A stretch of DNA of 41,284 nt from Nitrospinota bacterium (lineage in GTDB: Bacteria > UBA8248). The notes beneath the pieces were generated by a model. That model saw only the letters and a list, made by a program, of their open reading frames with translations, was not told where the DNA came from and ran no database searches. The number at the start of each line of letters is the position of its first letter. Within the stretch, counting starts at the first letter, position 1. Location: positions 1 to 41,284 of the forward strand of contig JAYGFR010000057.1 of assembly GCA_046581755.1 (NCBI GenBank), written 5' to 3'. Below, in pieces: positions 26,370 to 39,607 of the stretch. A program made the position numbers and the translations under genes.

Positions 26370-29207
26370 TCAAACCGACTCGTCCGGGGCCTCCCCCTGC
26401 GGAAACGCGGACAGACGGGCCTTCCGCCGCTCAATCGTCTTGAGCCATCCCTCCAGGGATTTCACGACCTCGCTGGAATGCATCGGAGAGGATGACACCG
26501 CTTCTTCCATAACTCCATCGGAGGGCTGGAGCAAGTCTCCTTCCCCGCTTTCGGAGATTCGGGCTTCGAGCTCCTGGATTTGCAAACCCAGCCAGACCGA
26601 ATCCGGGTCCGCCACCTCCGCCTTCTGGCATACGTCCAGCGCCCGGGCAAAATTTTCTTCCAGAACATATATTTCGATAATACCCCGCAACATCTCCTCG
26701 GCGGGATTCGCCGTCCGAGCATCCGGCGCCCCGTTTTGGGCATCTCCGGCCGCTTCAGAGACACCCGCCGCAGCCGGTGGTCCGGACGTCTCCACAGGCT
26801 CTTGTCCAGGCTCTTCTCCCGCCGCCCCCTCGGGCAAGGACGGGGAAACCTCCGCCGGGCCGTCTTCCTCTTCCTCGAAAACGACTGATTCGAGAAATAA
26901 ATCCACCCCGGAGGTGACCGCTTCCGCTTCTTCAGCCGGCTCCGCCCCGACTTCCGCCAAAGAAGCATCCGCTTCTGGAGCTTCCGCCGCCGGGGGGGAC
27001 ACTCCCAACTCCTCTTCAAACAAGGCGTCCAGGTCGCCGCCATCCCCGCCCATTGCGTCTACCGCGTCCACCGCCGGCAAATCAACCCCGGCATCTTCCT
27101 CATCCGCCACAGGAGCTTCCACTTCTGGAGCTTCCGCCACCGGGGGGGGCACTCCCAACTCCTCTTCAAACATGGCGTCCAGGTCGCCGTCATCCCTGCC
27201 CGATGCGTCTACCGCATCCACCGCATCCGCCGCCGGCAAATCAACTCCGGCATCTTCCTCATCCGCCACAGAGGCATCCGCCTCTGGAGCTTCCGCCGCC
27301 GGGGGGGGCACTCCCAACTCCTCTTCAAACATGGCGTCCAGGTCGCCGCCATCCCCGCCCAATGCGTCCGCCGCGTCCGCCCCCGGCAAATCAACCCCGG
27401 CATCTTCCTCGTCCGCCACAGAGGCATCCGCCTCTGGAGCTTCCGCCGCCGGGGGGGACTCCCCCAACTCCTCTTCAAACAAGGCGTCCAGGTCGCCGCC
27501 ATCCCCGCCCAATGCGTCTACCGCCTCCACCGCGTCCGCCGCCGGCAAATCAACCCCGGCATCTTCCCCATCCACCACAGAGGCATCCGCCTCTGGAGCT
27601 TCCGCCGCCGGGGGGGATTCTCCCAACTCCTCAGCAAACATGGCGTCCAGGCCATCCGGGTCCGGAACCGCTGCGGTATCCACGGTATCCACGGTATCTT
27701 CGGCAACGGGTGCTTCCGCCGCCGGGGTTTCCACCGCGGAGGCCGGGCTTTCGGAGAGATCCTCAAAAAGGGAATCCAGATCTTCGAAGGCCCCGCCCTC
27801 ACCGGCGGGCGCTTCCTCTAGGCCCTCTTCGGAAACCGCTTCCGCCGCCCCGGGCTCGCCTTCCGCATCAACCACCGCAGGAGCTTCCGCCGCCGGGGGG
27901 GGCTCTCCCATGGCTTGGGCAAGCATGGCGTCCAGCTCATCCCCATCCCCGGCCGGTTCGGCCACTTCATCCGAGGGCGGAGTTTCCTCCTCGGCATCCG
28001 CTGTTGAAATTCCCGCCTCAGGGGCAACGGTCTTTTCCGGCTCGTCCGCGAAAAGTGCGTCGAGATCGTCCATATCTCCGCCGCCCGAATCGGCGGCCTG
28101 ATCCGCAGCCGGGGTTTCTGCCGCCGGGGCCGTAGCGGGGGGAGACGCCGGCTCGTCCGCGAAAAGTGCGTCAAGATCGTCCAAATCTCCGCCGCCCGAA
28201 TCGGCGGCCTGATCCGCAGCCGGGGCTTTTGCCGCAGGGGCCACAGCGGGGGGAGACGCCGGCTCGTCCGCGAAAAGTGCGTCCAGGTCATCGACTTCTC
28301 CGCCGCCCGAATCGGCGGCCTGATCCGCAGCCGGGGCTTCTGCCGCGGGGGCCGCAGCGGGAGCCGTCTCCTCCGGCTCGTCCCCGAAAAGTGCGTCCAG
28401 GTCATCGACTTCTCCGCCCGCCTCCGGTTCCGCCGCGCTGGCCGGTTCGGCCGCTTCTGGAGCGAGAGCTTCGGCCCCGGTATCTCCGCCTGCCTCATCC
28501 AGGATCGAATCGAAATCCTCGATTTCGGACGCATCGCCGGATTCCACGGCCCCGGCGGGCGCTTCCCCGACTTGGCCAATCTGTTCCCGAAGGTCGGTGA
28601 TTTTTTCGAGGTAATCCATGTTCGCCGGATCTTCCTCGGCGAGGCTTTGGTAGACTTCGAGCGCCTTATCCGGGTGTCCCTGCGATATATAGAGTTCGGC
28701 GAGGGAGGGAGTGGGCACGGCATCGCCCGTCTCCTCCAGCGGGGCCTCATCCGCAAGAGCCGCCCCGGAAGCGGCGGAGGCCGCCCCAGGCGCTCCAAAG
28801 GTCCCTTCGAGAGCGGCGGCGGCCGCCTCGTCCTGGATATCGAACATTCCGATGGCCACCTGGGCCCGGCGAGCTCCCGCCTCATCGCCCAACTTTCGGC
28901 AACAATCCAAGAGAAGCCGCTGGGCGGCGAGGTTCCACGGTACGCGGGCAATGGCTTTTTCCAACTCACCGGCCGCATCGCTCACCTGCTCTTTCGCCAG
29001 ATAGATTTCGCCGAGAAGAACGCGGGGAGCCGCATAGGCCGAGTGATGCTGAAGCCCACCCGTGAGCAGGCCGATGGCCTTGTCGGCCTCTCCCTTTTCC
29101 CAGATCAGGCTGGCGAGCGGAAAAAACGCGGGAGAAACAGGGTCGTCCTCGAGAACGGCCTCGAGGACCTGAATTCTGGATTCTGGATCTCTGGGTCGAG
29201 AAGCCAT
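26370..29207 (-). CDS. TPR-containing protein with a long acidic Ala/Pro-rich repeat region
   Basis: N-terminal TPR-like helices (AFFPLASL...RVLLGEIYL; PSLAELYISQG), about 550 aa of D/E/A/P-rich sequence with recurring DLDALF, and C-terminal helices (LEGWLKTIERRK). No signal peptide or transmembrane segment seen. Confidence 0.85.
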   Translation of the reverse strand: MASRPRDPESRIQVLEAVLEDDPVSPAFFPLASLIWEKGEADKAIGLLTGGLQHHSAYAAPRVLLGEIYLAKEQVSDAAGELEKAIARVPWNLAAQRLLLDCCRKLGDEAGARRAQVAIGMFDIQDEAAAAALEGTFGAPGAASAASGAALADEAPLEETGDAVPTPSLAELYISQGHPDKALEVYQSLAEEDPANMDYLEKITDLREQIGQVGEAPAGAVESGDASEIEDFDSILDEAGGDTGAEALAPEAAEPASAAEPEAGGEVDDLDALFGDEPEETAPAAAPAAEAPAADQAADSGGGEVDDLDALFADEPASPPAVAPAAKAPAADQAADSGGGDLDDLDALFADEPASPPATAPAAETPAADQAADSGGGDMDDLDALFADEPEKTVAPEAGISTADAEEETPPSDEVAEPAGDGDELDAMLAQAMGEPPPAAEAPAVVDAEGEPGAAEAVSEEGLEEAPAGEGGAFEDLDSLFEDLSESPASAVETPAAEAPVAEDTVDTVDTAAVPDPDGLDAMFAEELGESPPAAEAPEADASVVDGEDAGVDLPAADAVEAVDALGGDGGDLDALFEEELGESPPAAEAPEADASVADEEDAGVDLPGADAADALGGDGGDLDAMFEEELGVPPPAAEAPEADASVADEEDAGVDLPAADAVDAVDASGRDDGDLDAMFEEELGVPPPVAEAPEVEAPVADEEDAGVDLPAVDAVDAMGGDGGDLDALFEEELGVSPPAAEAPEADASLAEVGAEPAEEAEAVTSGVDLFLESVVFEEEEDGPAEVSPSLPEGAAGEEPGQEPVETSGPPAAAGVSEAAGDAQNGAPDARTANPAEEMLRGIIEIYVLEENFARALDVCQKAEVADPDSVWLGLQIQELEARISESGEGDLLQPSDGVMEEAVSSSPMHSSEVVKSLEGWLKTIERRKARLSAFPQGEAPDESV
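26960..27660. repeat. Intragenic tandem repeat family 1 (5 units, alternating 150/159 bp)
   Basis: The anchor CTCCCAACTCCTC (or a one-base variant) recurs at 27002, 27152, 27311, 27461 and 27620. Confidence 0.9.
28039..28420. repeat. Intragenic tandem repeat family 2 (about 3.5 units of 111-114 bp)
   Basis: The anchor GGCTCGTCC(G/C)CGAAAAGTGCGTC recurs at 28039, 28150, 28261 and 28375. Confidence 0.9.
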
Positions 29208-29294
29208 GGGACTCCGCCGGATCGAAGCGGAACTTCACCGAAAAGGGCAGACCGACGAACTCACTTTGCCCCGGCAGGACTTAAATATCAACCC

Positions 29295-29324
29295 TTTACC
29301 CCTTTGAACCCGCGACCGTATACT
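29295..29324 (+). promoter_or_regulatory. Putative sigma70 promoter of hyuAB
   Basis: TTTACC-18 nt-TATACT in the AT-rich divergent intergenic region. Confidence 0.4.
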
Positions 29325-29369
29325 CCCCGGAATCATTTCACCGGAACCTCTCGGGAGAAACGCTCACAC

Positions 29370-31499
29370 ATGTTTCAGATTGGCATCGACGCCGGAGGCA
29401 CCTTCACGGATTTTTGGGTGACCGGGGCGGACCCCGGCAGCGGCTCTTCCATCGAGGGGTTGATGCACAAAATCCCTTCCACACCGGGGGACCCGGCCCG
29501 GGCCGTCATTCAGGGCATCGGGGAAATCGCCTCCTCCCGGGGGCTTTCCGCCGGAGATTTCCTGAAGGAGACCGGGCTCATCGTTCACGGAACCACCGTG
29601 GCGACCAACGCCGTGCTCACCGGAAACGGAGCCAAGGCCGGCCTCATCACCACGCAGGGCTTCCGAGACATTCTCCAGATGCGGCGGGGATGGAGGGAGG
29701 AGTTTTTCAACAACAAGAGGCCACTCCCGGCGCCCCTCATCCGCCGGGCCCTGCGGCGAACGGTGGCGGGCCGGCTGGACGAAACCGGCGCCGAACTCGA
29801 ACCCCTCGACGAGGCGGGCGTCCGCGAGGAGGCCCTTCGCCTCAAGGCCGAGGGCGTGGAGTCGGTCGTCCTCTGCTTTATTCACGCCTGGGCCAATTCC
29901 GATCACGAAAGACGGGCGGCGGAGATTGTCCACGAGGTTTTCCCCGAGGCGTTCCTGACCGTCTCCTCCGAACTCCTTCCGCAAATCAGGCTCTACGAAC
30001 GCGTGAGCACCTGTGCCTTCAACGCCTACGTCGGGCCCATCATTCAAAAATATCTAGAAAAGCTGGACACCTCGCTCCGGGAGGCCGGTTTCGCGGGCGC
30101 CCTGCTCATCATGGGATCGCACGGCGGGGTGATGACGGCCCCGGTGGCCGCGCGCCGGGCGGCTTCATCCCTCCTCTCGGGCCCCGCCGCCGCCCCGGTC
30201 GCGGCATCCCGGGCGGCCGCCCCCTACGGAATCACGGACTACATCGTCACTGACATGGGCGGGACGAGCTACGATGTGGCGCTCATCCAGGGCGGCGAGC
30301 CCCTGGTCACCCAGGAAAACTGGCTCGGCGGCAGGCGCATCGCTCTCCCCTCGCTCGACATCCACACGCTGGGCGCGGGGGGAGGGAGCATCGCCTGGTG
30401 CGACCAGGGGGGGATCCTCCACGTCGGCCCCCGGAGCGCGGGGGCGAATCCCGGCCCCGCCTGCTACGGCCAGGGGGGGGAAGAGCCCACTGCCACGGAC
30501 GCCTGCCTGGTGCTCGGCTACCTGGACCCGGACTATTTCCTGGGAGGAAAACTCCGCCTCCGCCGCCGGGAAGCCGAAGAGGCGATTCGGCGCGCCGTGG
30601 CCGAGCCGATGGGCCTGTCGGTGGAAGAAGCGGCTCTTGGCATCTACGAGGTCATCTGCACTCAGATGGCGGCCGGAATCCGGGAGGTCACCGTCCGCAG
30701 GGGGCTCGATCCGCGCGATTTTCTCATGCTCGCCGCGGGCGGGGCGGGGCCGCTTCACGCCGGAACCATCGCGCGCGATCTGGATATTCCCCTGGTCATG
30801 GTCCCGGGAGATTCCGCCGTATTTTGCGCCGCCGGAATGCTGATCTCCGATCTCAAGCACGACCTCGCCGTGAGCTGGCGCGCGGGGGCCTCGGACCTCG
30901 ACCCGCGCGAACTCTCGGCGCGCTTTCGGACGCTTCGAGAGGAGTGCCGCGCGATTTTGGCCGAGCAGCGCGTCCCCGGGGATCGGATGGCCTTCGAGCC
31001 GGCGGTGGATATGCGCTACATCGGCCAGCATCACGAAGTCACCGTTCCCCTTCCGTCCGGGTCCATCGATGCCCCCGACATCGGGGATATTCTCGGACGG
31101 TTTCATGCGTGCCACGACGCCCTCTACGGGTACGCCACCGAAGAGATGCCCGCCGAATGCATCACCCTCCGGATGAGCGGACGGGGGCGAACGGAACGGA
31201 CGGCCGTCTCCCCTCCGCCCATCGGCGTCGCGCTCCCCCCGTCACCGCCCCGTGCGAAGCGGCGGATATGGTTGCCCGGCACGCCGGAACCCGTTCAAGC
31301 GGATATATACCGGGGAGAGGCGCTGGTGCCGGGCATGACGATCGCAGGACCCGCCCTCGTCGAGCGGCCGAACACGACCATCCTTGTGCCGGGAGATCAT
31401 GAACTCGCCCGTGGCGCATTCGGCCACAGCTTCATCTGGCCGGCAGCCCGGGCGGATGAAATGCGCGCCAGATTCATGCCGACCGGGGAGGCCACCTGA
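29370..31499 (+). CDS. hyuA: Hydantoinase A / 5-oxoprolinase family, ATP-binding subunit
   Basis: IGIDAGGTFTD, HGTTVATNA, GLITTQGFRD, SGPAA, DMGGTSYD, GAGGGSIA, VGPRSAGANPGPACYG, DMRY.GQ. Start reset to ATG 29370. Confidence 0.92.
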   Translation: MFQIGIDAGGTFTDFWVTGADPGSGSSIEGLMHKIPSTPGDPARAVIQGIGEIASSRGLSAGDFLKETGLIVHGTTVATNAVLTGNGAKAGLITTQGFRDILQMRRGWREEFFNNKRPLPAPLIRRALRRTVAGRLDETGAELEPLDEAGVREEALRLKAEGVESVVLCFIHAWANSDHERRAAEIVHEVFPEAFLTVSSELLPQIRLYERVSTCAFNAYVGPIIQKYLEKLDTSLREAGFAGALLIMGSHGGVMTAPVAARRAASSLLSGPAAAPVAASRAAAPYGITDYIVTDMGGTSYDVALIQGGEPLVTQENWLGGRRIALPSLDIHTLGAGGGSIAWCDQGGILHVGPRSAGANPGPACYGQGGEEPTATDACLVLGYLDPDYFLGGKLRLRRREAEEAIRRAVAEPMGLSVEEAALGIYEVICTQMAAGIREVTVRRGLDPRDFLMLAAGGAGPLHAGTIARDLDIPLVMVPGDSAVFCAAGMLISDLKHDLAVSWRAGASDLDPRELSARFRTLREECRAILAEQRVPGDRMAFEPAVDMRYIGQHHEVTVPLPSGSIDAPDIGDILGRFHACHDALYGYATEEMPAECITLRMSGRGRTERTAVSPPPIGVALPPSPPRAKRRIWLPGTPEPVQADIYRGEALVPGMTIAGPALVERPNTTILVPGDHELARGAFGHSFIWPAARADEMRARFMPTGEAT

Positions 31500-31501
31500 A
31501 T

Positions 31502-33256
31502 ATGAGTGCCATCCCCCGCCCCCCGGGCATCGATCCCATCCTCGCCTCCGTTCTCCAGCGGCGCCTCCGCTCCATCACCGAGGAGATGGCGCTCACCCTG
31601 CTCCACACCACCCGATCGCCCATTCTTTCCGAGGGCAGGGACTTCGCCACCGGGGTTTACTGGGCCAACGGCGACATGCTCGAGCAGACCGAATACACCG
31701 CTCTCCTGGGGTTCGCCCTCCAACCATCGCTCAAGGCGTGCATCGAATATTTCAAGGACGATATCCGGCCCGGAGACGTGATTTTTCACAACGACGTTTA
31801 CCTCGGCGGCAACCAGATCAACGACCTGGGCGTGTTCAAGCCCATCTTCTTCGAGGATGAACTTGTCGCCTGGGCCGCCTGTAAGGCCCACCAGGCGGAC
31901 CTGGGCGGGGGCGCCCCGGGTGGATACAACCCCGAGGCAACCGAAATCTGGCACGAGGGGCTGCGCGTCCCGCCGCTCAAAATGTGGGAGGCCGGGAAGC
32001 TGCGGCGCGACGTGTGGGACATGATTTTCGCCAACACCCGCCTCGACATCGTGGCCGAGGACGCCAAGGCCTGCGCGGGCTCCTGCAACGTGGGCGAGCG
32101 GCGGGTTCTCGAAGTGCTTGGCCGCTACGGGCGCGAGGCGTTCGACCGTCACATGGCCTACATCATGGACGGGGCCGAGCGGATCATGCGCGGCGAGATC
32201 GCCGCCATGCCGGACGGCGTCTACCGGGGCGAGTCGTTCCTGGCCAACGACGGATTTCAGGAGGGCGTCCGCCACAAGGTGGTGTGCACCCTCACCGTCG
32301 ATGGCGATGCGATCGCGTTCGACTACACCGGCTCGGCGGGCCCCACGCCGGGCTACGCGAACGCCCCCCTCCACGCCTCGACGAGCGGCCTGATGATCGC
32401 CATCTTGATGAACGTCGATCCCGAGATTCCGCACAACGCCGGCATGCTCCGGCCCATCGAAATGATCTTTCCCGAAAACTCGATGCTCAACGCCGAGTTT
32501 CCCCACGCCACCAGCTACGGCAACCACCTCACCCACCAGATTTGGGAGGCCGCCGTGAAGGCGCTCGCCCAGGCCATTCCCCACCGGGTGACGGCGGGAT
32601 GGAACAAGGTCTACTGGGGCATGTCCAGCGGCTACGACAGACGCAGCGGCCGCCGCTTCGTGGATTTTTGCCTCTTCGCGATGAAGGGGGGCTCGGGCGC
32701 GACCGAGGGCCTCGACGGGCTGGATCACATCGGCACCGTCATGACCGGAGGGGCGATGACGGCCCAGGACCCCGAGATGCACGAAATCCAGACCCCTCAC
32801 CGGATCCGCCATTTCGAATACGAGATCGACTCGGCCGGGCCGGGGCGCTGGCGCGGCGGGCTCGGGATTCGCTCGGAATGGCAGCTCCTCGGCCGCGATG
32901 CGAAGATCATCATGTTCGGCCAGCAGACCGAGCCCGGCGAGGAGCCTTTCGGTCTGTTCGGGGGACGGGCCGCCGGTCTCAACACCGCTAAACTCACCTA
33001 CCCCGGCGGGCGCGAGTACATCTCAAAGGGTCACGAAATTATCCCGGACGCCGAGGGCGTCGTCATCGAGCAGGTGGCCTCGGGCGGCGGCGGGTACGGC
33101 GACCCGAGGCTCCGGCCCGCCGAGATCGTGCGAGAGGAGGTGCGCGATGAGATCGTCTCCGCCGAATCGGCGCGGCGCGACTATGGGGTGGCGCTCGATC
33201 CGGAAACCCTCGAGATCGACGAGGCCGAAACCGCCCGCCTGCGGAAGGGAGTTTGA
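31502..33256 (+). CDS. hyuB: Hydantoinase B / oxoprolinase family subunit
   Basis: EEM...L..T.RS, GDVIFHNDVYLGG, HQADLGG..PG, EGLRVPP, DSAGPGRWRGG, SGGGGYGDP. Confidence 0.92.
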   Translation: MSAIPRPPGIDPILASVLQRRLRSITEEMALTLLHTTRSPILSEGRDFATGVYWANGDMLEQTEYTALLGFALQPSLKACIEYFKDDIRPGDVIFHNDVYLGGNQINDLGVFKPIFFEDELVAWAACKAHQADLGGGAPGGYNPEATEIWHEGLRVPPLKMWEAGKLRRDVWDMIFANTRLDIVAEDAKACAGSCNVGERRVLEVLGRYGREAFDRHMAYIMDGAERIMRGEIAAMPDGVYRGESFLANDGFQEGVRHKVVCTLTVDGDAIAFDYTGSAGPTPGYANAPLHASTSGLMIAILMNVDPEIPHNAGMLRPIEMIFPENSMLNAEFPHATSYGNHLTHQIWEAAVKALAQAIPHRVTAGWNKVYWGMSSGYDRRSGRRFVDFCLFAMKGGSGATEGLDGLDHIGTVMTGGAMTAQDPEMHEIQTPHRIRHFEYEIDSAGPGRWRGGLGIRSEWQLLGRDAKIIMFGQQTEPGEEPFGLFGGRAAGLNTAKLTYPGGREYISKGHEIIPDAEGVVIEQVASGGGGYGDPRLRPAEIVREEVRDEIVSAESARRDYGVALDPETLEIDEAETARLRKGV

Positions 33257-33301: not shown

Positions 33302-33736
33302 TCAGGAAAAATCGGAAGGTCCGCCGTACAGGCGGTGCTCGACCATGATTCAGAGGTCCATGACGACCGCGAGACCGACCTCCCGCGCCCGGCGAGCGGC
33401 GGCCTCGTCGATGACCCCTTTTTGAAGCCATACCGCCCGCGCCCCCGCGGCGAGGGCCTCATCCACCACCCCGCCGACACGGTCCGAACGCCGGAATACG
33501 TTCACCACCTCGGGAGGCTCCGGCAGGGCGGCGAGACGCGGATAACACGTTTCGCCCAAGAGCGATTCATGGCCGGGGTTGACGGGAACGATCTCGTAGC
33601 CCGCCTTCTTCATGTAGGCGCTCACATAGTGGCTGGGCCGATGCTCCTTGGGGGATAGGCCGACCACCGCAATCCGGCGGAAATCCCGGAGCATCGCGCG
33701 GATCGTCTCCGGGTCCTTGAAGGAGGAATCATTCAC
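33302..33736 (-). CDS. CoA-binding protein (YccU-like), predicted selenoprotein (U129)
   Basis: IAVVGLS.KEHRPS, Y.IVPVNP, VVNVFRRS, AVWLQ.G. In-frame TGA at 33352-33350 reads GLAVVMDL-U-IMVEHRLYGG, matching the family C-terminus 'VVMDRC..EH'. GTG start overlaps the upstream TGA and the next stop is at 33302. Confidence 0.85.
33318..33344 (-). promoter_or_regulatory. Putative bacterial SECIS element for the TGA at 33352-33350
   Basis: mRNA UGA AUCAU GGU CGAGCA CCGCC UGUAC GGCGG ACC. It has a 5-bp GC upper stem, a loop starting 20 nt after UGA with G-U at loop positions 2-3, and a lower GGU/ACC pairing. Confidence 0.65.
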
Positions 33737-34557
33737 CGCTTCACCGCCGCCGGCCGGTCCCGCTCTTCCCACTCCTTCAGATGTCCCCGGAGCGATTCCG
33801 GATCGCCGGCGCCCTCGAGAAAGCGGGACAGGGCGTCTTCGTCGGTATCGTAAAGGGGGAAACACGAGGCCGGAGCCGCCCCTCCGGGCGCGTGAACCAC
33901 CGCACGCACCAGGAAGGCCGGAATGTTCGTCCGCTCGGGTTTTTCCTCGAAAAAATCCGTCTCCACGATGCGCTCGGCGGTGAGGATGACGCCCTCGGCG
34001 GCGCGCGACATGAGAACGTCCTCGAACGTGCCGCCGTCGATTCGCGCGTTGCCCCCGGCGTCGGCGTGCTGCACGTGGAGGAGGGCCCAGTCCGGCCGGA
34101 TGCGCGGGATCATGTAAACCTTCTTTCCGGTATACGGGTCCTCCGCCTTCCGGAACCCCGTCAGCGCGGGCGTGTCGCTTCCCTCCATCCCGGCCACCGG
34201 CTGGCTTGGCAAGCCGTAGGCCGAGGCGCGAAGACCCGCGATCACGGTGTAGCAGACATGCTCGACGGCCCGGACGGTTCCGCCCTCGACGCCCCGGCGG
34301 TAGGAGGGCGCCATGCCGAACAGGTTCTCGTAGCCGACGTAGCCCGATCGGACCTCGGCCGCCGCCCCCGCCGCGCAGAGCAGATCGATGTCATAGGCCC
34401 CCGCCGTCTTGACGAGGCAAAGGCCGCGCCTCCCCTGCCGCGCAAGCTCCCGCACGAGGGCGGACGGGGTGCGGCTCAGCGAGTTGCCGCCAAGCGCGAT
34501 CAGCTGGCCATCCTCGATCAGGGCGGCCGCCTCTTGAAGGGAATGAAGTTTACTCAC
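33733..34557 (-). CDS. Family I CoA-transferase-like alpha subunit (GctA/IpdA-like), Cys102 form
   Basis: KLHSLQEAAALIEDG, R.P.AL.REL, DLLCAAG, EHVC, GLRA.AYG.P, DPYTG, PDWA.LHV..AD..GN, HAPGGA.P.SC. 274 aa from GTG 34557, which overlaps the beta stop. Confidence 0.88.
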   Translation of the reverse strand: MSKLHSLQEAAALIEDGQLIALGGNSLSRTPSALVRELARQGRRGLCLVKTAGAYDIDLLCAAGAAAEVRSGYVGYENLFGMAPSYRRGVEGGTVRAVEHVCYTVIAGLRASAYGLPSQPVAGMEGSDTPALTGFRKAEDPYTGKKVYMIPRIRPDWALLHVQHADAGGNARIDGGTFEDVLMSRAAEGVILTAERIVETDFFEEKPERTNIPAFLVRAVVHAPGGAAPASCFPLYDTDEDALSRFLEGAGDPESLRGHLKEWEERDRPAAVKR

Positions 34558-35336
34558 GAAATCTCCTGCCGCTTCACCCGGCGAAGCTCGGGGAATTCGG
34601 AATAGCGGACGCCCTCGGGGTCCACCTCGGCGAGAGCGGCCAGCTCTTCCCCGGTGGGAGGAGGCGTCTCGGGAACACCCCCCGCCCAATCGAGCGGAAA
34701 CCCTGTCCGCCCGGCCACCTCCTCCGCCGTGGCGCCGGGGTGGACGCTCTCCAGTTCGAGGCCGCCCGCGCCCATGGCGAGAACCGCCAGCGGGGTGATC
34801 ACCCGCGTCAGGTTTCCCGTCTGGGTCACGAAATCCACCTTCGGGACGAACGTCCGCCGGTCGTACACCGTGCGCCAGATCACGGTGCGCCGCGCCTGCT
34901 CCATGACGACCGAACCCCCGCCCCCGCCGGGGAGCCGCACCTTGGGGGAGGAAGGTTCTCCGATGTAGCTCATGTTCACGCGTCCCGCCCGGTCGATCTG
35001 GGCGCAGCCCAGAAACATGAGATCCATTCCGCCCCGCGCGAAGAGATCGTAGGCGTCCGCGTTCGAGAATATCGCCGCCGCCCCCTGGCAGAGCACCGGG
35101 TCGTTCGTGCTAAAGGGCAGGCGCTCCGGCTTGGGGTCCACCGAGCCCGCGACCTCGATGAGGACCGCGCGCGGGGCATGGAGTTTTTTCGCCAGGAAAA
35201 TGGCCACCATCGGGAGCGGCGAATTCACGCCGTGAAAAACCCGCTCGCCGTCGCGCACCTCGCGGGCCAGGCAAACGGCCATCTGGTCCGCTGCCGCGCG
35301 GGCGGCATCGGCATCGAATGTTGTTTCTTGCCCCAA
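34554..35336 (-). CDS. Family I CoA-transferase-like beta subunit (GctB-like)
   Basis: AREVRDGE.VF.G, P.VA..LAK..HAP, DLMFLGCAQID..G.VN, VRLPGGGG, FVPKVDFVT, VITPLAV, SVHPG, TGF. Confidence 0.88.
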   Translation of the reverse strand: MGQETTFDADAARAAADQMAVCLAREVRDGERVFHGVNSPLPMVAIFLAKKLHAPRAVLIEVAGSVDPKPERLPFSTNDPVLCQGAAAIFSNADAYDLFARGGMDLMFLGCAQIDRAGRVNMSYIGEPSSPKVRLPGGGGGSVVMEQARRTVIWRTVYDRRTFVPKVDFVTQTGNLTRVITPLAVLAMGAGGLELESVHPGATAEEVAGRTGFPLDWAGGVPETPPPTGEELAALAEVDPEGVRYSEFPELRRVKRQEIS

Positions 35337-35341
35337 TTTCC

Positions 35342-36166
35342 CTAGCTCCCCGCCGCATCCGGGGCGGAAGCCCGGTCCGCCGAATCGAGATACTCGGCAA
35401 GGCCCTCGGCGGTCCGGGACAGTTCCATGTAGCGGCGAATCCCGGCCTCGTCCACCCCATAGGCGGGGTGGCAGCTACAGGGTCCCGCCCCGCCCGGCGC
35501 GTGGGCGACGGCGGCCACCATGAACCCCGGCACCGCCGTCAGCTCCGGCTCCTCGGCCATGCGCCCTGGAGGGACGATCTCCTCGGCGGTGACGATGACC
35601 CCCTTCGCCGCCCGCGTCATCTCCACGTCGAAATAGCGCGGACCGTAAATCCTCGCGTTCCCCTCGGCGTCGGCTTCATGGACGTGGAGGATCGCCCAGT
35701 CGGGCCGGAGGGCGGGGATGGCGTGCAACCTCTCGCCGGTGTAGGGATCGTCGATGGTCAGGATGCCGCTTCGCTCCGGTATGTCGCTTCCCTTAAAACC
35801 CCGGATGGGCTGAAAGGGAACGCCGTAGGCTGCGGCCCGCAGCCCCGCGAGGATGCTCGCTCAGGCGTGTTCGGTCAGCCCGGCGAGCCCATTTTCGATG
35901 GATTTCCTGTAGTTGGGCGCGAGGCCGTAGCTGGCCTCGAAGGTGACGATGCCGCTCAGAACGCGGCCCAGCGCGCCCGCCGCGCAAAGCAGGTCCGCAT
36001 CGTAGCCCGGCGACGGCTTGATGAGGGTGAGCCCCTTCCTTCCGGCCCGGACGAGCTCGCGCAAAAGAGCCGATGGCGCCCGGTGGAGCAGGCTCCCGCT
36101 CGTGCTGATCGAATCGCCGTCCTTTACCAGCGCCGCGGCCTCGGCCAGCGTGCAAAGTTTGGTCAT
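35342..36166 (-). CDS. Family I CoA-transferase-like alpha subunit, predicted selenoprotein (U102)
   Basis: ORF-track pieces 35861..36166 and 35342..35728 are one frame, broken only by TGA at 35863-35861. Read-through gives 274 aa (…TEHA-U-ASILAGLRAAAYGVPFQPIRGFKGSD…DPYTG…PDWAILHV), collinear without gaps with the Cys102 paralog. Confidence 0.88.
35827..35860 (-). promoter_or_regulatory. Putative bacterial SECIS element for the TGA at 35863-35861
   Basis: mRNA UGA GCGAG-CAUC-CUCGC G GGGCUGC-GGGCC-GCAGCCU. The second hairpin has a G-led loop starting 23 nt after UGA. The equivalent codons of the Cys paralog do not form it. Confidence 0.65.
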
Positions 36167-36311: not shown

Positions 36312-36677
36312 TTAATCCAGAAGGACATCCTCCTCGTCCATCAGCATCAGGTAGGGCTCGCCATATTGCTTCGGATCGTCCAGGCCCCACCCCTCGCCCG
36401 AATCCGCCAGCCTGAGGCGGACCCCCCAATCGCCCCCGAATATCAGGTGCACCTCGACGGCCCCCGAATCGGAGACCGGGACATACTTGGCCGGACAGGG
36501 CGACCCGCCATCCGCGCTGCTCCAGCCGGTCACCTCGTAGATGCCTTCCACCTTTCCCATCTCGGAGATTTTGACCCGCCGGATCGGCACGGGCCTCCGG
36601 CGGGCCTCGTATACCATCATCGGCATGTAGGCGCAGTTTTCGTTTTCCTCCACTTCGAGATAGATGGATTCGGTCAT
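36312..36677 (-). CDS. Hypothetical protein (121 aa, acidic, beta-rich)
   Basis: MTESIYLEVEENENCAYMPMMVYE…GWSS…DSG…GGDWGVRL…GEPYL. ATG lies 2 nt after the Rid stop and the composition is protein-like. Confidence 0.75.
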   Translation of the reverse strand: MTESIYLEVEENENCAYMPMMVYEARRRPVPIRRVKISEMGKVEGIYEVTGWSSADGGSPCPAKYVPVSDSGAVEVHLIFGGDWGVRLRLADSGEGWGLDDPKQYGEPYLMLMDEEDVLLD

Positions 36678-36679
36678 GA

Positions 36680-37105
36680 TCAATCGATCACAGCGACGGC
36701 GTTGATTTCGATCAGGCAGCGCGGGTCGGTGGCGAGCTGGACCACCTGGACGGAGGTCGTTGCCGGTTTGTTCTCCCCGAAAAATTCCGCCCAGACCCGG
36801 TTGAGATCGTCCTGGTCGGTCAGGTCGGTCTGATACCGCGAGACCGCGACCACGTCGGCGAAGGTGGCGCCGACGGCCTCGAGACCCTTTTTCAGATTCT
36901 CGAGCGCGGCGCGCGCCTGCCCCTCCATGTTCTCCGGCATGGCGTCGAACTCCTCGGGGCGGTGGGGGTGGTGATGGTAGACCGGAGCCGCCGTCACGCC
37001 CGCGAAGTAGACCGTCGTCCCGCCCGTCACCTTGATCGCCGGGGCATAGGGCATCCACAGGTCCGGGGCGTCCGGCCAGTGAACGTGTTCGATATTTTTC
37101 GTCAT
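36680..37105 (-). CDS. Rid (YjgF/YER057c/UK114) family protein
   Basis: PYAPAIKV, VYFAG, EGQARAALENL...L...GATFADVV, PATTSVQV..L, LIEINAVAV. ATG 37105 with a GGAGG RBS. Confidence 0.9.
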   Translation of the reverse strand: MTKNIEHVHWPDAPDLWMPYAPAIKVTGGTTVYFAGVTAAPVYHHHPHRPEEFDAMPENMEGQARAALENLKKGLEAVGATFADVVAVSRYQTDLTDQDDLNRVWAEFFGENKPATTSVQVVQLATDPRCLIEINAVAVID

Positions 37106-37256: not shown

Positions 37257-38024
37257 ATGATGGCGGAAAAAACGCTTGAAGGGAAAAGGGCCGTGGTCAC
37301 GGGCGGCTCGTCGGGAATCGGCGCTGCCATCGCCGTGCGATTCGCCTCGGCGGGGGCGGACATTTGGGTGGCGGGTGGAAGCAGCCGGGAGGGGCTTCAA
37401 AAGTCAATCGACGCCTGCGCCGCGCACGGGGTCAAGGCAGGAGGGGATCTGTACGACCTCTCGACCGGGAGGAACGCCGCCGGCCTTGTGAAGGAGGGCG
37501 CGGAATTTCTCGGCGGCCTCGATATCCTCGTCAATTCGGCGGGCACACGGAACCTGAGCGCGTTCGTGGATATCGAAGACGACGCCATCGATCTCCTGTT
37601 CGAGGTGAACGCCAAGGCGGCGTTTTACGCCTCGCGCGAGGCCGCGCGCATCATGGTCCCCCAGGGGAGCGGAAATATTCTCATGATCGGCTCGGACGCC
37701 GGCGATCAGGGCACGCCCAACTTCTCCCTCTACGGGGTGACCAAGGCGGCCATGCACGCGCTGACCAAGAACCTGGCCATCGAACTGGGACCCTCGGGGC
37801 TGCGCGTCAACTGCATGGCGATGGGGCCCACCCGAAGCGGCCGGGTGAAGGAGCTTTTGGACAACGACCCGGAATTCTACAAGAGCCGGATCAACAAGGT
37901 GCCCATCCGGGATTTCGGCGATCCCGAGGACATCGCCGAGACCGCTCTCTTTATCGTTTCGCCCGCGAACAAATTCATGAGCGGAGCCATCGTCATGATC
38001 GACGGCGGTATCACCGCAGGTTGA
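37257..38024 (+). CDS. Short-chain dehydrogenase/reductase (paralog 1)
   Basis: TGGSSGIG, LVNSAG, GS, YGVTK, DGG. Confidence 0.92.
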   Translation: MMAEKTLEGKRAVVTGGSSGIGAAIAVRFASAGADIWVAGGSSREGLQKSIDACAAHGVKAGGDLYDLSTGRNAAGLVKEGAEFLGGLDILVNSAGTRNLSAFVDIEDDAIDLLFEVNAKAAFYASREAARIMVPQGSGNILMIGSDAGDQGTPNFSLYGVTKAAMHALTKNLAIELGPSGLRVNCMAMGPTRSGRVKELLDNDPEFYKSRINKVPIRDFGDPEDIAETALFIVSPANKFMSGAIVMIDGGITAG

Positions 38025-38042
38025 TTTGCGCAAAAACATCCC

Positions 38043-38807
38043 ATGACGGCTAAAATCCTGACGGGAAAACGCGCCGTCGTCACCGGCGCCTCCTCGGGCA
38101 TGGGGGCGGCCATCGCCCGCCGCTTCGCCGCCGAGGGGGCGGACATTTGGGCCGTGGGCGGAGGCGATGCCGAAGGGCTCAACAAGACCGTCGAGGGCTG
38201 CGCCAAAAGCGGCGTCCGGTCGGGCGGAGCGGGATACGACTTCTCCCGGCCCCGGACGGCGGGAGAGGCCATCCGCGAGGGGGCGGAATTCCTGGGCGGC
38301 CTGGACATCTTGGTAAACTGCGCCAGCGGGCGGAACTTCAAGGCCCTGACCGACCTTTCGGACGCCGATATCGACTTCATGTTCGATCTGAACGCGAAGT
38401 CGTATTTTTTCGCCTCCCGGGAGGCCGCCCGCATCATGGTCCCCCAGGAAAGCGGGCACATCATCATGATGGGCTCGGTCTCGGGCGAGCGGGCCCGGCC
38501 GATGCGCTCGCTATACTGCGCGACGAAGGCGGCGGTCCATTCCCTCACCCGATCCATGGCGCTCGAACTGGGCCCCCTGGGCCTGCGCGTCAACTGCGTC
38601 GCCCCCGGCCTGATCGATAGCGGCCGGGTGAAGAAGATGATGGAGGACGATCCGGACCTTTCCAGGAAGCGGATCGCGGGCATTCCGCTCAGCCGCCTGG
38701 GCGATCCTGGCCAGATCGCCGCCATGGTTCTTTTCATGGTCTCTCCCGAGAACGACTTCATGAACGGCGCCATCGTCCCCGTGGATGGGGGCTCGATGGC
38801 GGGCTAA
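38043..38807 (+). CDS. Short-chain dehydrogenase/reductase (paralog 2)
   Basis: TGASSGMG, LVNCAS, YCATK, VNCVAPG, VDGG. Confidence 0.92.
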   Translation: MTAKILTGKRAVVTGASSGMGAAIARRFAAEGADIWAVGGGDAEGLNKTVEGCAKSGVRSGGAGYDFSRPRTAGEAIREGAEFLGGLDILVNCASGRNFKALTDLSDADIDFMFDLNAKSYFFASREAARIMVPQESGHIIMMGSVSGERARPMRSLYCATKAAVHSLTRSMALELGPLGLRVNCVAPGLIDSGRVKKMMEDDPDLSRKRIAGIPLSRLGDPGQIAAMVLFMVSPENDFMNGAIVPVDGGSMAG

Positions 38808-38842
38808 TTTTCATTTATTTTCATACCGAAAGACGGGAACGC

Positions 38843-39607
38843 ATGGACATCAAAATCCTCGCAGGAAAACGCGCTGTCGTCACCGGAGCCTCATCGGGCA
38901 TGGGCGCGGCCATCGCCCGCCGGTTCGCCGCCGAGGGGGCGGACATCTGGGCCGTGGGAGGAGCGGACGCCGAGGGTCTCAACAAGACCGTCGAGGGCTG
39001 CGCCGAAAGCGGTGTCCAGTCGGGCAGAGCGGGATACGACTTCTCCCGGGCCCGGGCCGCGGAAGACGCCGTCCGGGAAGGGGCGGAATTCCTGGGTGGC
39101 CTCGACATTCTGGTCAACTGCGCCGGGGGCCGGGTGTTCAAGGGAATCTTGGATATCACCGACGATGAGATCGATTTCATGTACGAGCTCAACACGAAAT
39201 CCCTCTTTTATTCTTGCCGGGAGGCGGCGCGCATCATGACTCGCCAAAAAAGCGGGCATATCCTCAACATGGGCTCGGTGGCGGGGATTCAGGCGAGCGC
39301 CGACCGCTCTCTTTACTGCACGACGAAGGCGGCGGTCCATTTGCTCACGAAGTGCCTGGCCCTGGAGCTGGGTCCGCTGGGAATCCAGGTTAACTGCCTG
39401 GCGCCCGGGCTCGTGGACAGCGGCCGGGTGAAGGTGCGCCTGGCGGCAAACCCCGAGTATGCCGAAAAGAGAATCAGCCAGATTCCCGTCCGGCGGCTCG
39501 GCGATCCGGAGAACATCGCATCAACCACGCTCTTCATCGTCTCGCCAGAAAACAAGTTTATGAACGGCGCCATCGTCTCCATCAACGGGGGCGTGAGCGC
39601 GGGATGA
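38843..39607 (+). CDS. Short-chain dehydrogenase/reductase (paralog 3)
   Basis: TGASSGMG, LVNCAG, YCTTK, VNCLAPG. Confidence 0.92.
   Translation: MDIKILAGKRAVVTGASSGMGAAIARRFAAEGADIWAVGGADAEGLNKTVEGCAESGVQSGRAGYDFSRARAAEDAVREGAEFLGGLDILVNCAGGRVFKGILDITDDEIDFMYELNTKSLFYSCREAARIMTRQKSGHILNMGSVAGIQASADRSLYCTTKAAVHLLTKCLALELGPLGIQVNCLAPGLVDSGRVKVRLAANPEYAEKRISQIPVRRLGDPENIASTTLFIVSPENKFMNGAIVSINGGVSAG

Follow-up and report, generated by a model that had tools for sequence, protein, structure and literature searches.

The window analysed here, a stretch of 41,284 nucleotides from a Nitrospinota genome, carries a minus-strand run of genes in the order Rid, small ORF, alpha(Sec), beta, alpha(Cys) and YccU(Sec) (Table 1). 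Alpha and beta are subunits of the CoA-transferase fold, and the bracketed residue distinguishes predicted selenocysteine forms from cysteine forms. The last three genes of the run are joined by GTGA overlaps, the GTG start of the YccU(Sec) gene overlapping the stop of its upstream neighbour. The Rid gene also lies upstream of alpha(Sec) in the two genus-mate regions long enough to show it. The ORF of about 120 codons between them (36312-36683, minus strand) has a C-terminal part of 82 residues for which no match was found in NCBIfam or in the genus-mate regions. Hydantoinase/oxoprolinase A and B genes (28572-33256, plus strand) converge on the operon, with the B gene in place in two genus-mates, and three tandem short-chain dehydrogenase genes (37257-39607, plus strand) diverge from it and are kept in the genus-mates. 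A promoter and terminator scan returned two promoter-like and three terminator-like sites, which is near chance, and the RNA runs gave short contigs on all four genes that say nothing on level, strand or a single transcript.

Table 1. Features of the YccU(Sec) locus, with positions in the window.
Feature	Position	Strand	Remarks
YccU/YneT-type CoA-binding selenoprotein gene, 144 residues	33302..33736	-	Final stop TGA 33304-33302
In-frame TGA, codon 129 of 144, predicted selenocysteine at the family's invariant Cys	33350..33352	-	Just before the last helix (130-137)
SECIS-like hairpin of YccU(Sec)	33316..33340	-	5-pair core stem; loop UGUAC starting 19 nt after UGA
CoA-transferase-fold alpha subunit, Cys form (EHV-C-YT)	33733..34557	-	Directly upstream of YccU(Sec); stop/start overlap
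CoA-transferase-fold beta subunit	34554..35336	-	Val at the position of AibB Cys56
CoA-transferase-fold alpha subunit, the operon's second selenoprotein (EHA-U-AS)	35342..36166	-	
In-frame TGA, alpha(Sec) codon 102	35861..35863	-	Aligns with Cys in the paralogue, Glu in IpdA (6con) and Gln in GctA (1poi)
SECIS-like hairpin of alpha(Sec)	35827..35845	-	7 pairs; loop GGGCC 22 nt after UGA
Rid-family (PF01042) gene heading the minus-strand run	36680..37105	-	

The minus-strand frame from 33736 to 33302 reads ...VVMDL-TGA-IMVEHRLYGGPSDFS-TGA, with a single internal TGA at which the table-11 ORF ends. The PF13380 profile scores 133 bits on the table-11 part against a cut-off of 22.8. All the invariant residues of this family are present (G26, S28, R33, S35, P51, P54, F81, R82, W103, Q105 and G121, which we take to hold CoA), as are the motifs G-x-S-x4-R-x-S, PVNP, FR and WxQxG. 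Judged from its sequence, the product is a stand-alone CoA-binding protein of the PF13380 family. When the internal TGA is read through, the alignment with solved YccU-type proteins runs to the C-terminus and pairs codon 129 with Cys in the four solved relatives compared (for example, VVMDRC in 2duw and VANRC in PH1109). Among the best 120 of 4342 homologues, position 129 is Cys in 95, the protein ends one residue earlier (at 128) in 24 and one is a chimera; there is no other end point before query residue 137. The 24 proteins that end just before the Sec position indicate that gene callers cut such proteins short. All 104 Cys-type rows have Cys at the equivalent position, and 93 of them have a His five residues further on, as do 41 of 48 Sec-type rows, five Sec-type rows ending before the His position.

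Among 61 genomes searched, the TGA form of YccU occurs in the window genome and in all four of its genus (4/4 genus-mates searched, protein identity 73-79%), with no TGA inside any further match among the matches listed. These five genomes also hold a Cys paralogue of YccU. Three of four DNA read runs cover the YccU TGA and show no difference from it, the fourth having no coverage there; given this agreement, we reject an assembly error.

A wider sample came from a stop-blind scan; its family motif closes with TRR and so matches TAA, TAG, TGA and TGG equally. When the motif was checked on the best 120 homologues, a slightly looser protein form of it matched 117 and a stricter form 115. Of the 121 distinct matches listed from GTDB genomes, 119 are TGA homologues, and the other two (TGG and TAG) are non-homologous. 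In metagenomes the corresponding figure, after nine duplicates were dropped, is 109 of 111, the others (TAG and TAA) again being non-homologous. One genome homologue scored only E 2e-5 but has the motif, and one metagenome homologue scored only E 4e-4. The scans covered 34 (genomes) and 20 (metagenomes) of 64 parts, so that the counts are of matches listed; the matches are closely interrelated, and two from the genome scan come from the window's own group and may repeat the genus-mate search. The sequence-only reading had proposed that Sec replaces the conserved C-terminal Cys, and had made this depend on truncated homologues not ending in TAA or TAG as often as in TGA and on conservation of the segment downstream. 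This proposal is borne out: in the homologous matches listed from the two scans the codon proved always to be TGA, and an 'EH'-type segment, xxx[ED/QV]H, continues in frame beyond it.

The window genome encodes SelA, SelB and SelD, all scoring above their cut-offs, as well as tRNA-Sec. Of the 50 carrier genomes examined (out of 119), 49 have a selA hit above cut-off. Leaving out genome G105 changes these tallies to 48 of 49 for selA and 118 of 120 for TGA homologues in the genome scan. The selD gene (G000:C268:4596-5561) has an in-frame TGA of its own, with a UxxK motif and a hairpin after it.

The first 29 nt 3' of the YccU UGA vary by only 0-2 letters among genus-mates. A loose hairpin filter is passed by 202 of 208 distinct downstream sequences, compared with a mean of 82 (maximum 94) after synonymous recoding. 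The same filter is also passed by 16 of 26 Cys paralogues and is therefore weak on its own, so that the weight is carried by the fixed position, the loop and a pair flip. The hairpin lies 19 or 22 bases after the UGA, loop position 2 is G in 107 of 119 distinct hairpins, and one stem pair is C-G in 64 and G-C in 31 of these. Folding z-scores for the window reach only -0.8 to -2.1, and energy alone does not single out the hairpin. The bacterial SECIS consensus has a G near the start of an apical loop that lies shortly after the UGA, and the YccU(Sec) hairpin has both features. The second selenoprotein gene behaves similarly. In a family search with alpha(Sec), a TGA lies inside 35 of the 109 matches listed, in 34 of the 42 genomes of the family, and at all 30 TGA loci examined it is at codon 102 with the same hairpin loop in the same place. 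The IpdA Glu that aligns with this codon is presumably catalytic, and we take the AibB Cys56 position to be the place of the catalytic Glu in true transferases.

The locus thus has a UGA on a conserved Cys with homology beyond it, no UAA or UAG in its place, sel genes and a hairpin, which is the arrangement described for bacterial selenoproteins with Cys homologues (UGA at the conserved Cys, a downstream hairpin and selA/selB/selD/selC; PMC13188914), although YccU(Sec) has no CxxU or UxxC motif. From the machinery and hairpin observed we consider it close to certain that the in-frame TGA is decoded as selenocysteine. It is very improbable that the TGA instead terminates translation or is decoded as Trp or Cys, leaving a protein that ends at residue 128 or lacks selenium. 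That reading would fit the ordinary stops of 26 window genes, where TGA is commonest (13 TGA, 11 TAA and 2 TAG), the mere 15 codons that follow the TGA and the one carrier genome of 50 in which selA was not found. It does not fit the complete lack of TAA, TAG or TGG at codon 129 in the 228 homologous matches listed from the two scans, the in-frame segment after the TGA, or the near-invariance of the 29 nt downstream. Reading as Trp is rejected because no homologue listed from the scans has TGG at this codon and TGG is the normal Trp codon in the window, serving 125 times in the same 26 genes.

Judged by record title, the carriers among the genome matches listed are mostly Dehalococcoidia/SAR202, followed by Binatia, 'delta proteobacterium', Syntrophobacter, Rokubacteria and Nitrospinota. 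Trees resolve three Sec groups, namely the window's group, Chloroflexota, and a divergent Binatia/Rokubacteria group, with one stray Sec row besides these in the larger tree. The Sec forms in these three marine and soil lineages may have arisen separately, but the test does not reject one Sec origin (p-AU 0.18, from a quick tree of 51 selected rows without the Sec column and tail). Four outlying TGA forms (L199, L225, L292 and L310) have different tails; one of them, L310, clusters with Cys forms in the tree and could represent an independent gain. One contig bears two Sec-type copies 1.6 kb apart with the same hairpin (L117:1055-1135 and 2695-2775), and two scan matches (L111 and L148) come from genomes among the ten most selenoprotein-rich of BSepDB (PMC13326102).

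Neither PF13380 nor a CoA-transferase subunit appears among the 119 families in Table 1 of a 2026 review, which includes families cited to Haft and Tolstoy 2025 and in which CoA-disulfide reductase, a flavoprotein, is the sole entry named for an action on CoA (PMC13188914). A term search of the text and four supplements of deep-Sep (PMC12013277) found neither family. The main text of BSepDB (PMC13326102) contains 'CoA' 0 times, and an earlier listing may stand in its family table or in Haft and Tolstoy 2025. NCBIfam has no selenoprotein model for YccU(Sec) or alpha(Sec), and our literature searches found no report of a Sec form of YccU. YccU(Sec) is a real, uncatalogued selenoprotein variant of a known family.

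The structural model of YccU(Sec) (pLDDT 94.4) is a single small Rossmann-type domain like that of PH1109 (2D5A; TM 0.88, rmsd 1.1; in a second comparison Z 23.8, rmsd 1.8 over 138 aligned residues). PF13380 relatives such as P. horikoshii PH1109 (2D59, 2D5A), T. thermophilus 1IUK/1IUL, Klebsiella 2DUW, E. coli YccU and B. subtilis YneT have family, length, fold and invariant residues in common with it, and in YneT even the local context corresponds (MDL-C-I for MDL-U-I). YccU(Sec) differs from the Cys forms in having Sec for the invariant Cys and a hairpin written into its last codons. The fold also matches succinyl-CoA synthetase (SCS) alpha (1jkj_A; Z 13.7, rmsd 2.7, 128 aligned). The CoA-binding domain of SCS alpha and ADP-forming acyl-CoA synthetases has its Cys in the same position, whereas YccU(Sec) lacks the ligase domain, is 12-26% identical and has MDL-U rather than GPN-C. 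With 144 residues and 31.6 bits against 567.15 for TIGR02717, it does not qualify as a synthetase itself.

BLAST aligns DL-U of YccU(Sec) with GPN-C of a synthetase-type (acyl-CoA-synthetase) paralogue from the same genome. In a profile search the alignment of the three synthetase-type paralogues stopped at about position 105, before reaching the Cys, so that the equivalence rests on BLAST and the overlap of the whole fold. On these grounds the earlier suggestion that residue 129 corresponds to the GPNC Cys is upheld. Its further suggestion, that this residue lies close to the CoA thiol, is supported by reported disulfides between CoA and the equivalent Cys in two proteins. A study of B. subtilis spores reports that the YneT peptide TVIMDLC126IK carries CoA as a mixed disulfide, YneT being one of four CoAlated proteins identified in dormant spores (PMC8127865), and SucD of S. 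aureus is reported to be CoAlated on GPNC (PMC5989533). Taken with the modelled fold, these adducts make it highly probable that Sec129 adjoins the CoA sulfur.

The sequence-only reading went on to suggest that YccU(Sec) is a carrier or redox partner of the neighbouring enzyme. This has fared poorly: of 156 loci drawn from the scans, a single one, a member of the window's own group, has a CoA-transferase-fold gene next to the Sec form. With this query, 49 other carrier genomes yielded no close orthologue of alpha(Sec). The four-gene order alpha(Sec)-beta-alpha(Cys)-YccU is found in the window's genus and G009. In the other genera examined, alpha(Sec) plus beta and alpha(Cys) plus beta are separate pairs without YccU, and alpha(Sec) plus beta has no adjoining YccU gene in most genera of the window's family. 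The linkage is nearly confined to this genus; a local partnership may exist there, and a general one is supported neither by neighbourhood nor by co-occurrence.

Other genes recur beside the Sec form elsewhere. A thioredoxin-reductase-like (TrxR-like) gene with a CATC motif is found at 25 of 78 genome and 12 of 78 metagenome Sec loci, mostly directly upstream on the same strand, and is absent from 53 of the 78 genome loci and from the window. The one protein tested scored 321.8 bits, below the TIGR01292 cut-off of 343.45. The genome linkage comes from one Chloroflexota subgroup and so is close to one event. Four loci (L083, L105, L127 and L144) have, no more than 6 kb from the Sec gene, a second TrxR-like gene to which a glutaredoxin-like CPDC domain is fused. 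The other common neighbours, a Fur-family gene (27 of 78 genome loci) and DUF1800/DUF1501, likewise stem largely from one Chloroflexota subgroup. In 24-27 of 78 loci (L070-L149), all Chloroflexota-labelled where checked, the Sec gene is followed by DUF1800, DUF1501 and an NHL-repeat gene.

The equivalent Cys bonds to the CoA sulfur in the Bacillus relative, which makes it likely that the YccU/YneT family carries out CoA-linked redox chemistry. Our preferred reading, to which we give a probability of about one half, is that YccU(Sec) is a CoA-specific thiol-exchange catalyst recycled by thioredoxin. SelB and tRNA-Sec would read the UGA with the help of the hairpin 19 nt downstream, and the Rossmann fold would bind CoA with Sec129 beside its sulfur. 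The selenolate would then attack a CoA-S-S-R disulfide, where R may be a protein Cys, a second CoA or a persulfide sulfur, freeing R-SH and forming Se-S-CoA, which thioredoxin and thioredoxin reductase, or a second CoA, would reduce with release of CoA. Such a scheme would follow the one-thiol logic of glutaredoxin, with CoA replacing glutathione and a different fold. A one-thiol cycle agrees with the patchy conservation of the second Cys (C64), present in just 15 of 48 Sec-type rows.

The literature offers partial parallels for such recycling. In living E. coli cells, a Cys of YccU is reported to form a cross-link with Trx1 (PMC5740110), whereas a computational prediction pairs YccU with SdaB instead (PMC10933411), and B. 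subtilis TrxA and YtpP are described as taking CoA off proteins (PMC10136147). The TrxR-like gene at a share of the Sec loci also speaks for a thioredoxin link, and its absence from the other loci and the window speaks against one. TrxA and YtpP are thioredoxin-type proteins with two catalytic Cys, whereas YccU(Sec) has a Rossmann fold, a CoA pocket and one Sec; the likeness would lie in the proposed chemistry only, namely thiol-disulfide exchange that frees CoA from mixed disulfides. The absence of CxxC or UxxC from YccU(Sec), and a fold that matches PH1109 and SCS alpha rather than thioredoxin, lower its membership in the TrxA/YtpP type and not the claim that it works in a like manner. Against an exchange role, the CoAlation of YneT and SucD may reflect only a Cys that lies beside bound CoA under oxidising conditions; CoAlated proteins are reported to number over 2000. 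C123 mutants of E. coli SCS stay active.

Three other functions have to be weighed against thiol exchange, each of them unlikely. The least improbable is that of a sulfur carrier, in which residue 129 would take sulfane sulfur or sulfide from a CoA persulfide and hand it to, for example, O-acetylhomoserine sulfhydrylase, the same chemistry at the CoA sulfur put to a biosynthetic purpose. The Cys paralogue of YccU (L006, L015-L039), which has a longer tail, adjoins the sulfhydrylase gene (TIGR01326) at 26 of 26 loci in genomes of the window's family and class, an adjacency that indicates sulfur transfer as much as repair. These 26 loci are kin, however; a sulfhydrylase of at least 50% identity accompanies the Sec form in 0 of 78 genome and 0 of 78 metagenome loci, and a literature search for such a link found nothing.

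Slightly less credible is acyl chemistry, with Sec129 taking an acyl group from acyl-CoA as a selenoester and the protein acting as an acyl carrier or acyl-CoA hydrolase, in this genus in the service of the adjacent CoA-transferase-fold enzyme. The overlap of the YccU(Sec) start with the alpha(Cys) stop, the order alpha(Sec)-beta-alpha(Cys)-YccU in G003, G004 and G009 (and implied for G002), the conserved His five residues on, which could serve as a base, and the Sec at an active-site position of the neighbouring enzyme all agree with this. The rarity of the linkage in the scan loci and the occurrence of alpha(Sec) plus beta without YccU in other genera do not, and the best alpha(Sec) matches in the 49 other carrier genomes are only 36-40% identical with no stop inside. 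The reported adducts on the equivalent Cys are, moreover, disulfides with CoA. A non-catalytic CoA store or redox sensor, whose reversible Se-S adduct would shield CoA from over-oxidation until thioredoxin is reduced, we rate a little lower still. The reported presence of YneT among the CoAlated spore proteins, the modelled lone binding domain and the Fur-family gene at many Sec loci speak for it. On the other side, Sec is usually retained where fast turnover matters, and a store would need to be abundant, of which the RNA runs give no sign either way.

Thiol exchange at CoA, if it is the function of YccU(Sec), would extend to a wider proposal that we regard as speculative and rather doubtful: that YccU/YneT is a dedicated 'CoAredoxin', a Rossmann-fold counterpart of glutaredoxin for CoA in bacteria and archaea, here co-transcribed with a CoA-transferase-fold selenoenzyme whose selenol it would keep free of CoA adducts. 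At the level of the family, the bacterial selenoproteome gains a member that gene callers truncate, and the working residue is singled out for a widespread family with solved structures that includes E. coli YccU and B. subtilis YneT. Both CoAredoxins and a CoA S-transferase are foreseen as enzymes of CoA redox biology in a 2024 review (PMC10950700). The Sec form is a concrete candidate for these anticipated enzymes, testable through the Cys forms found in laboratory strains.
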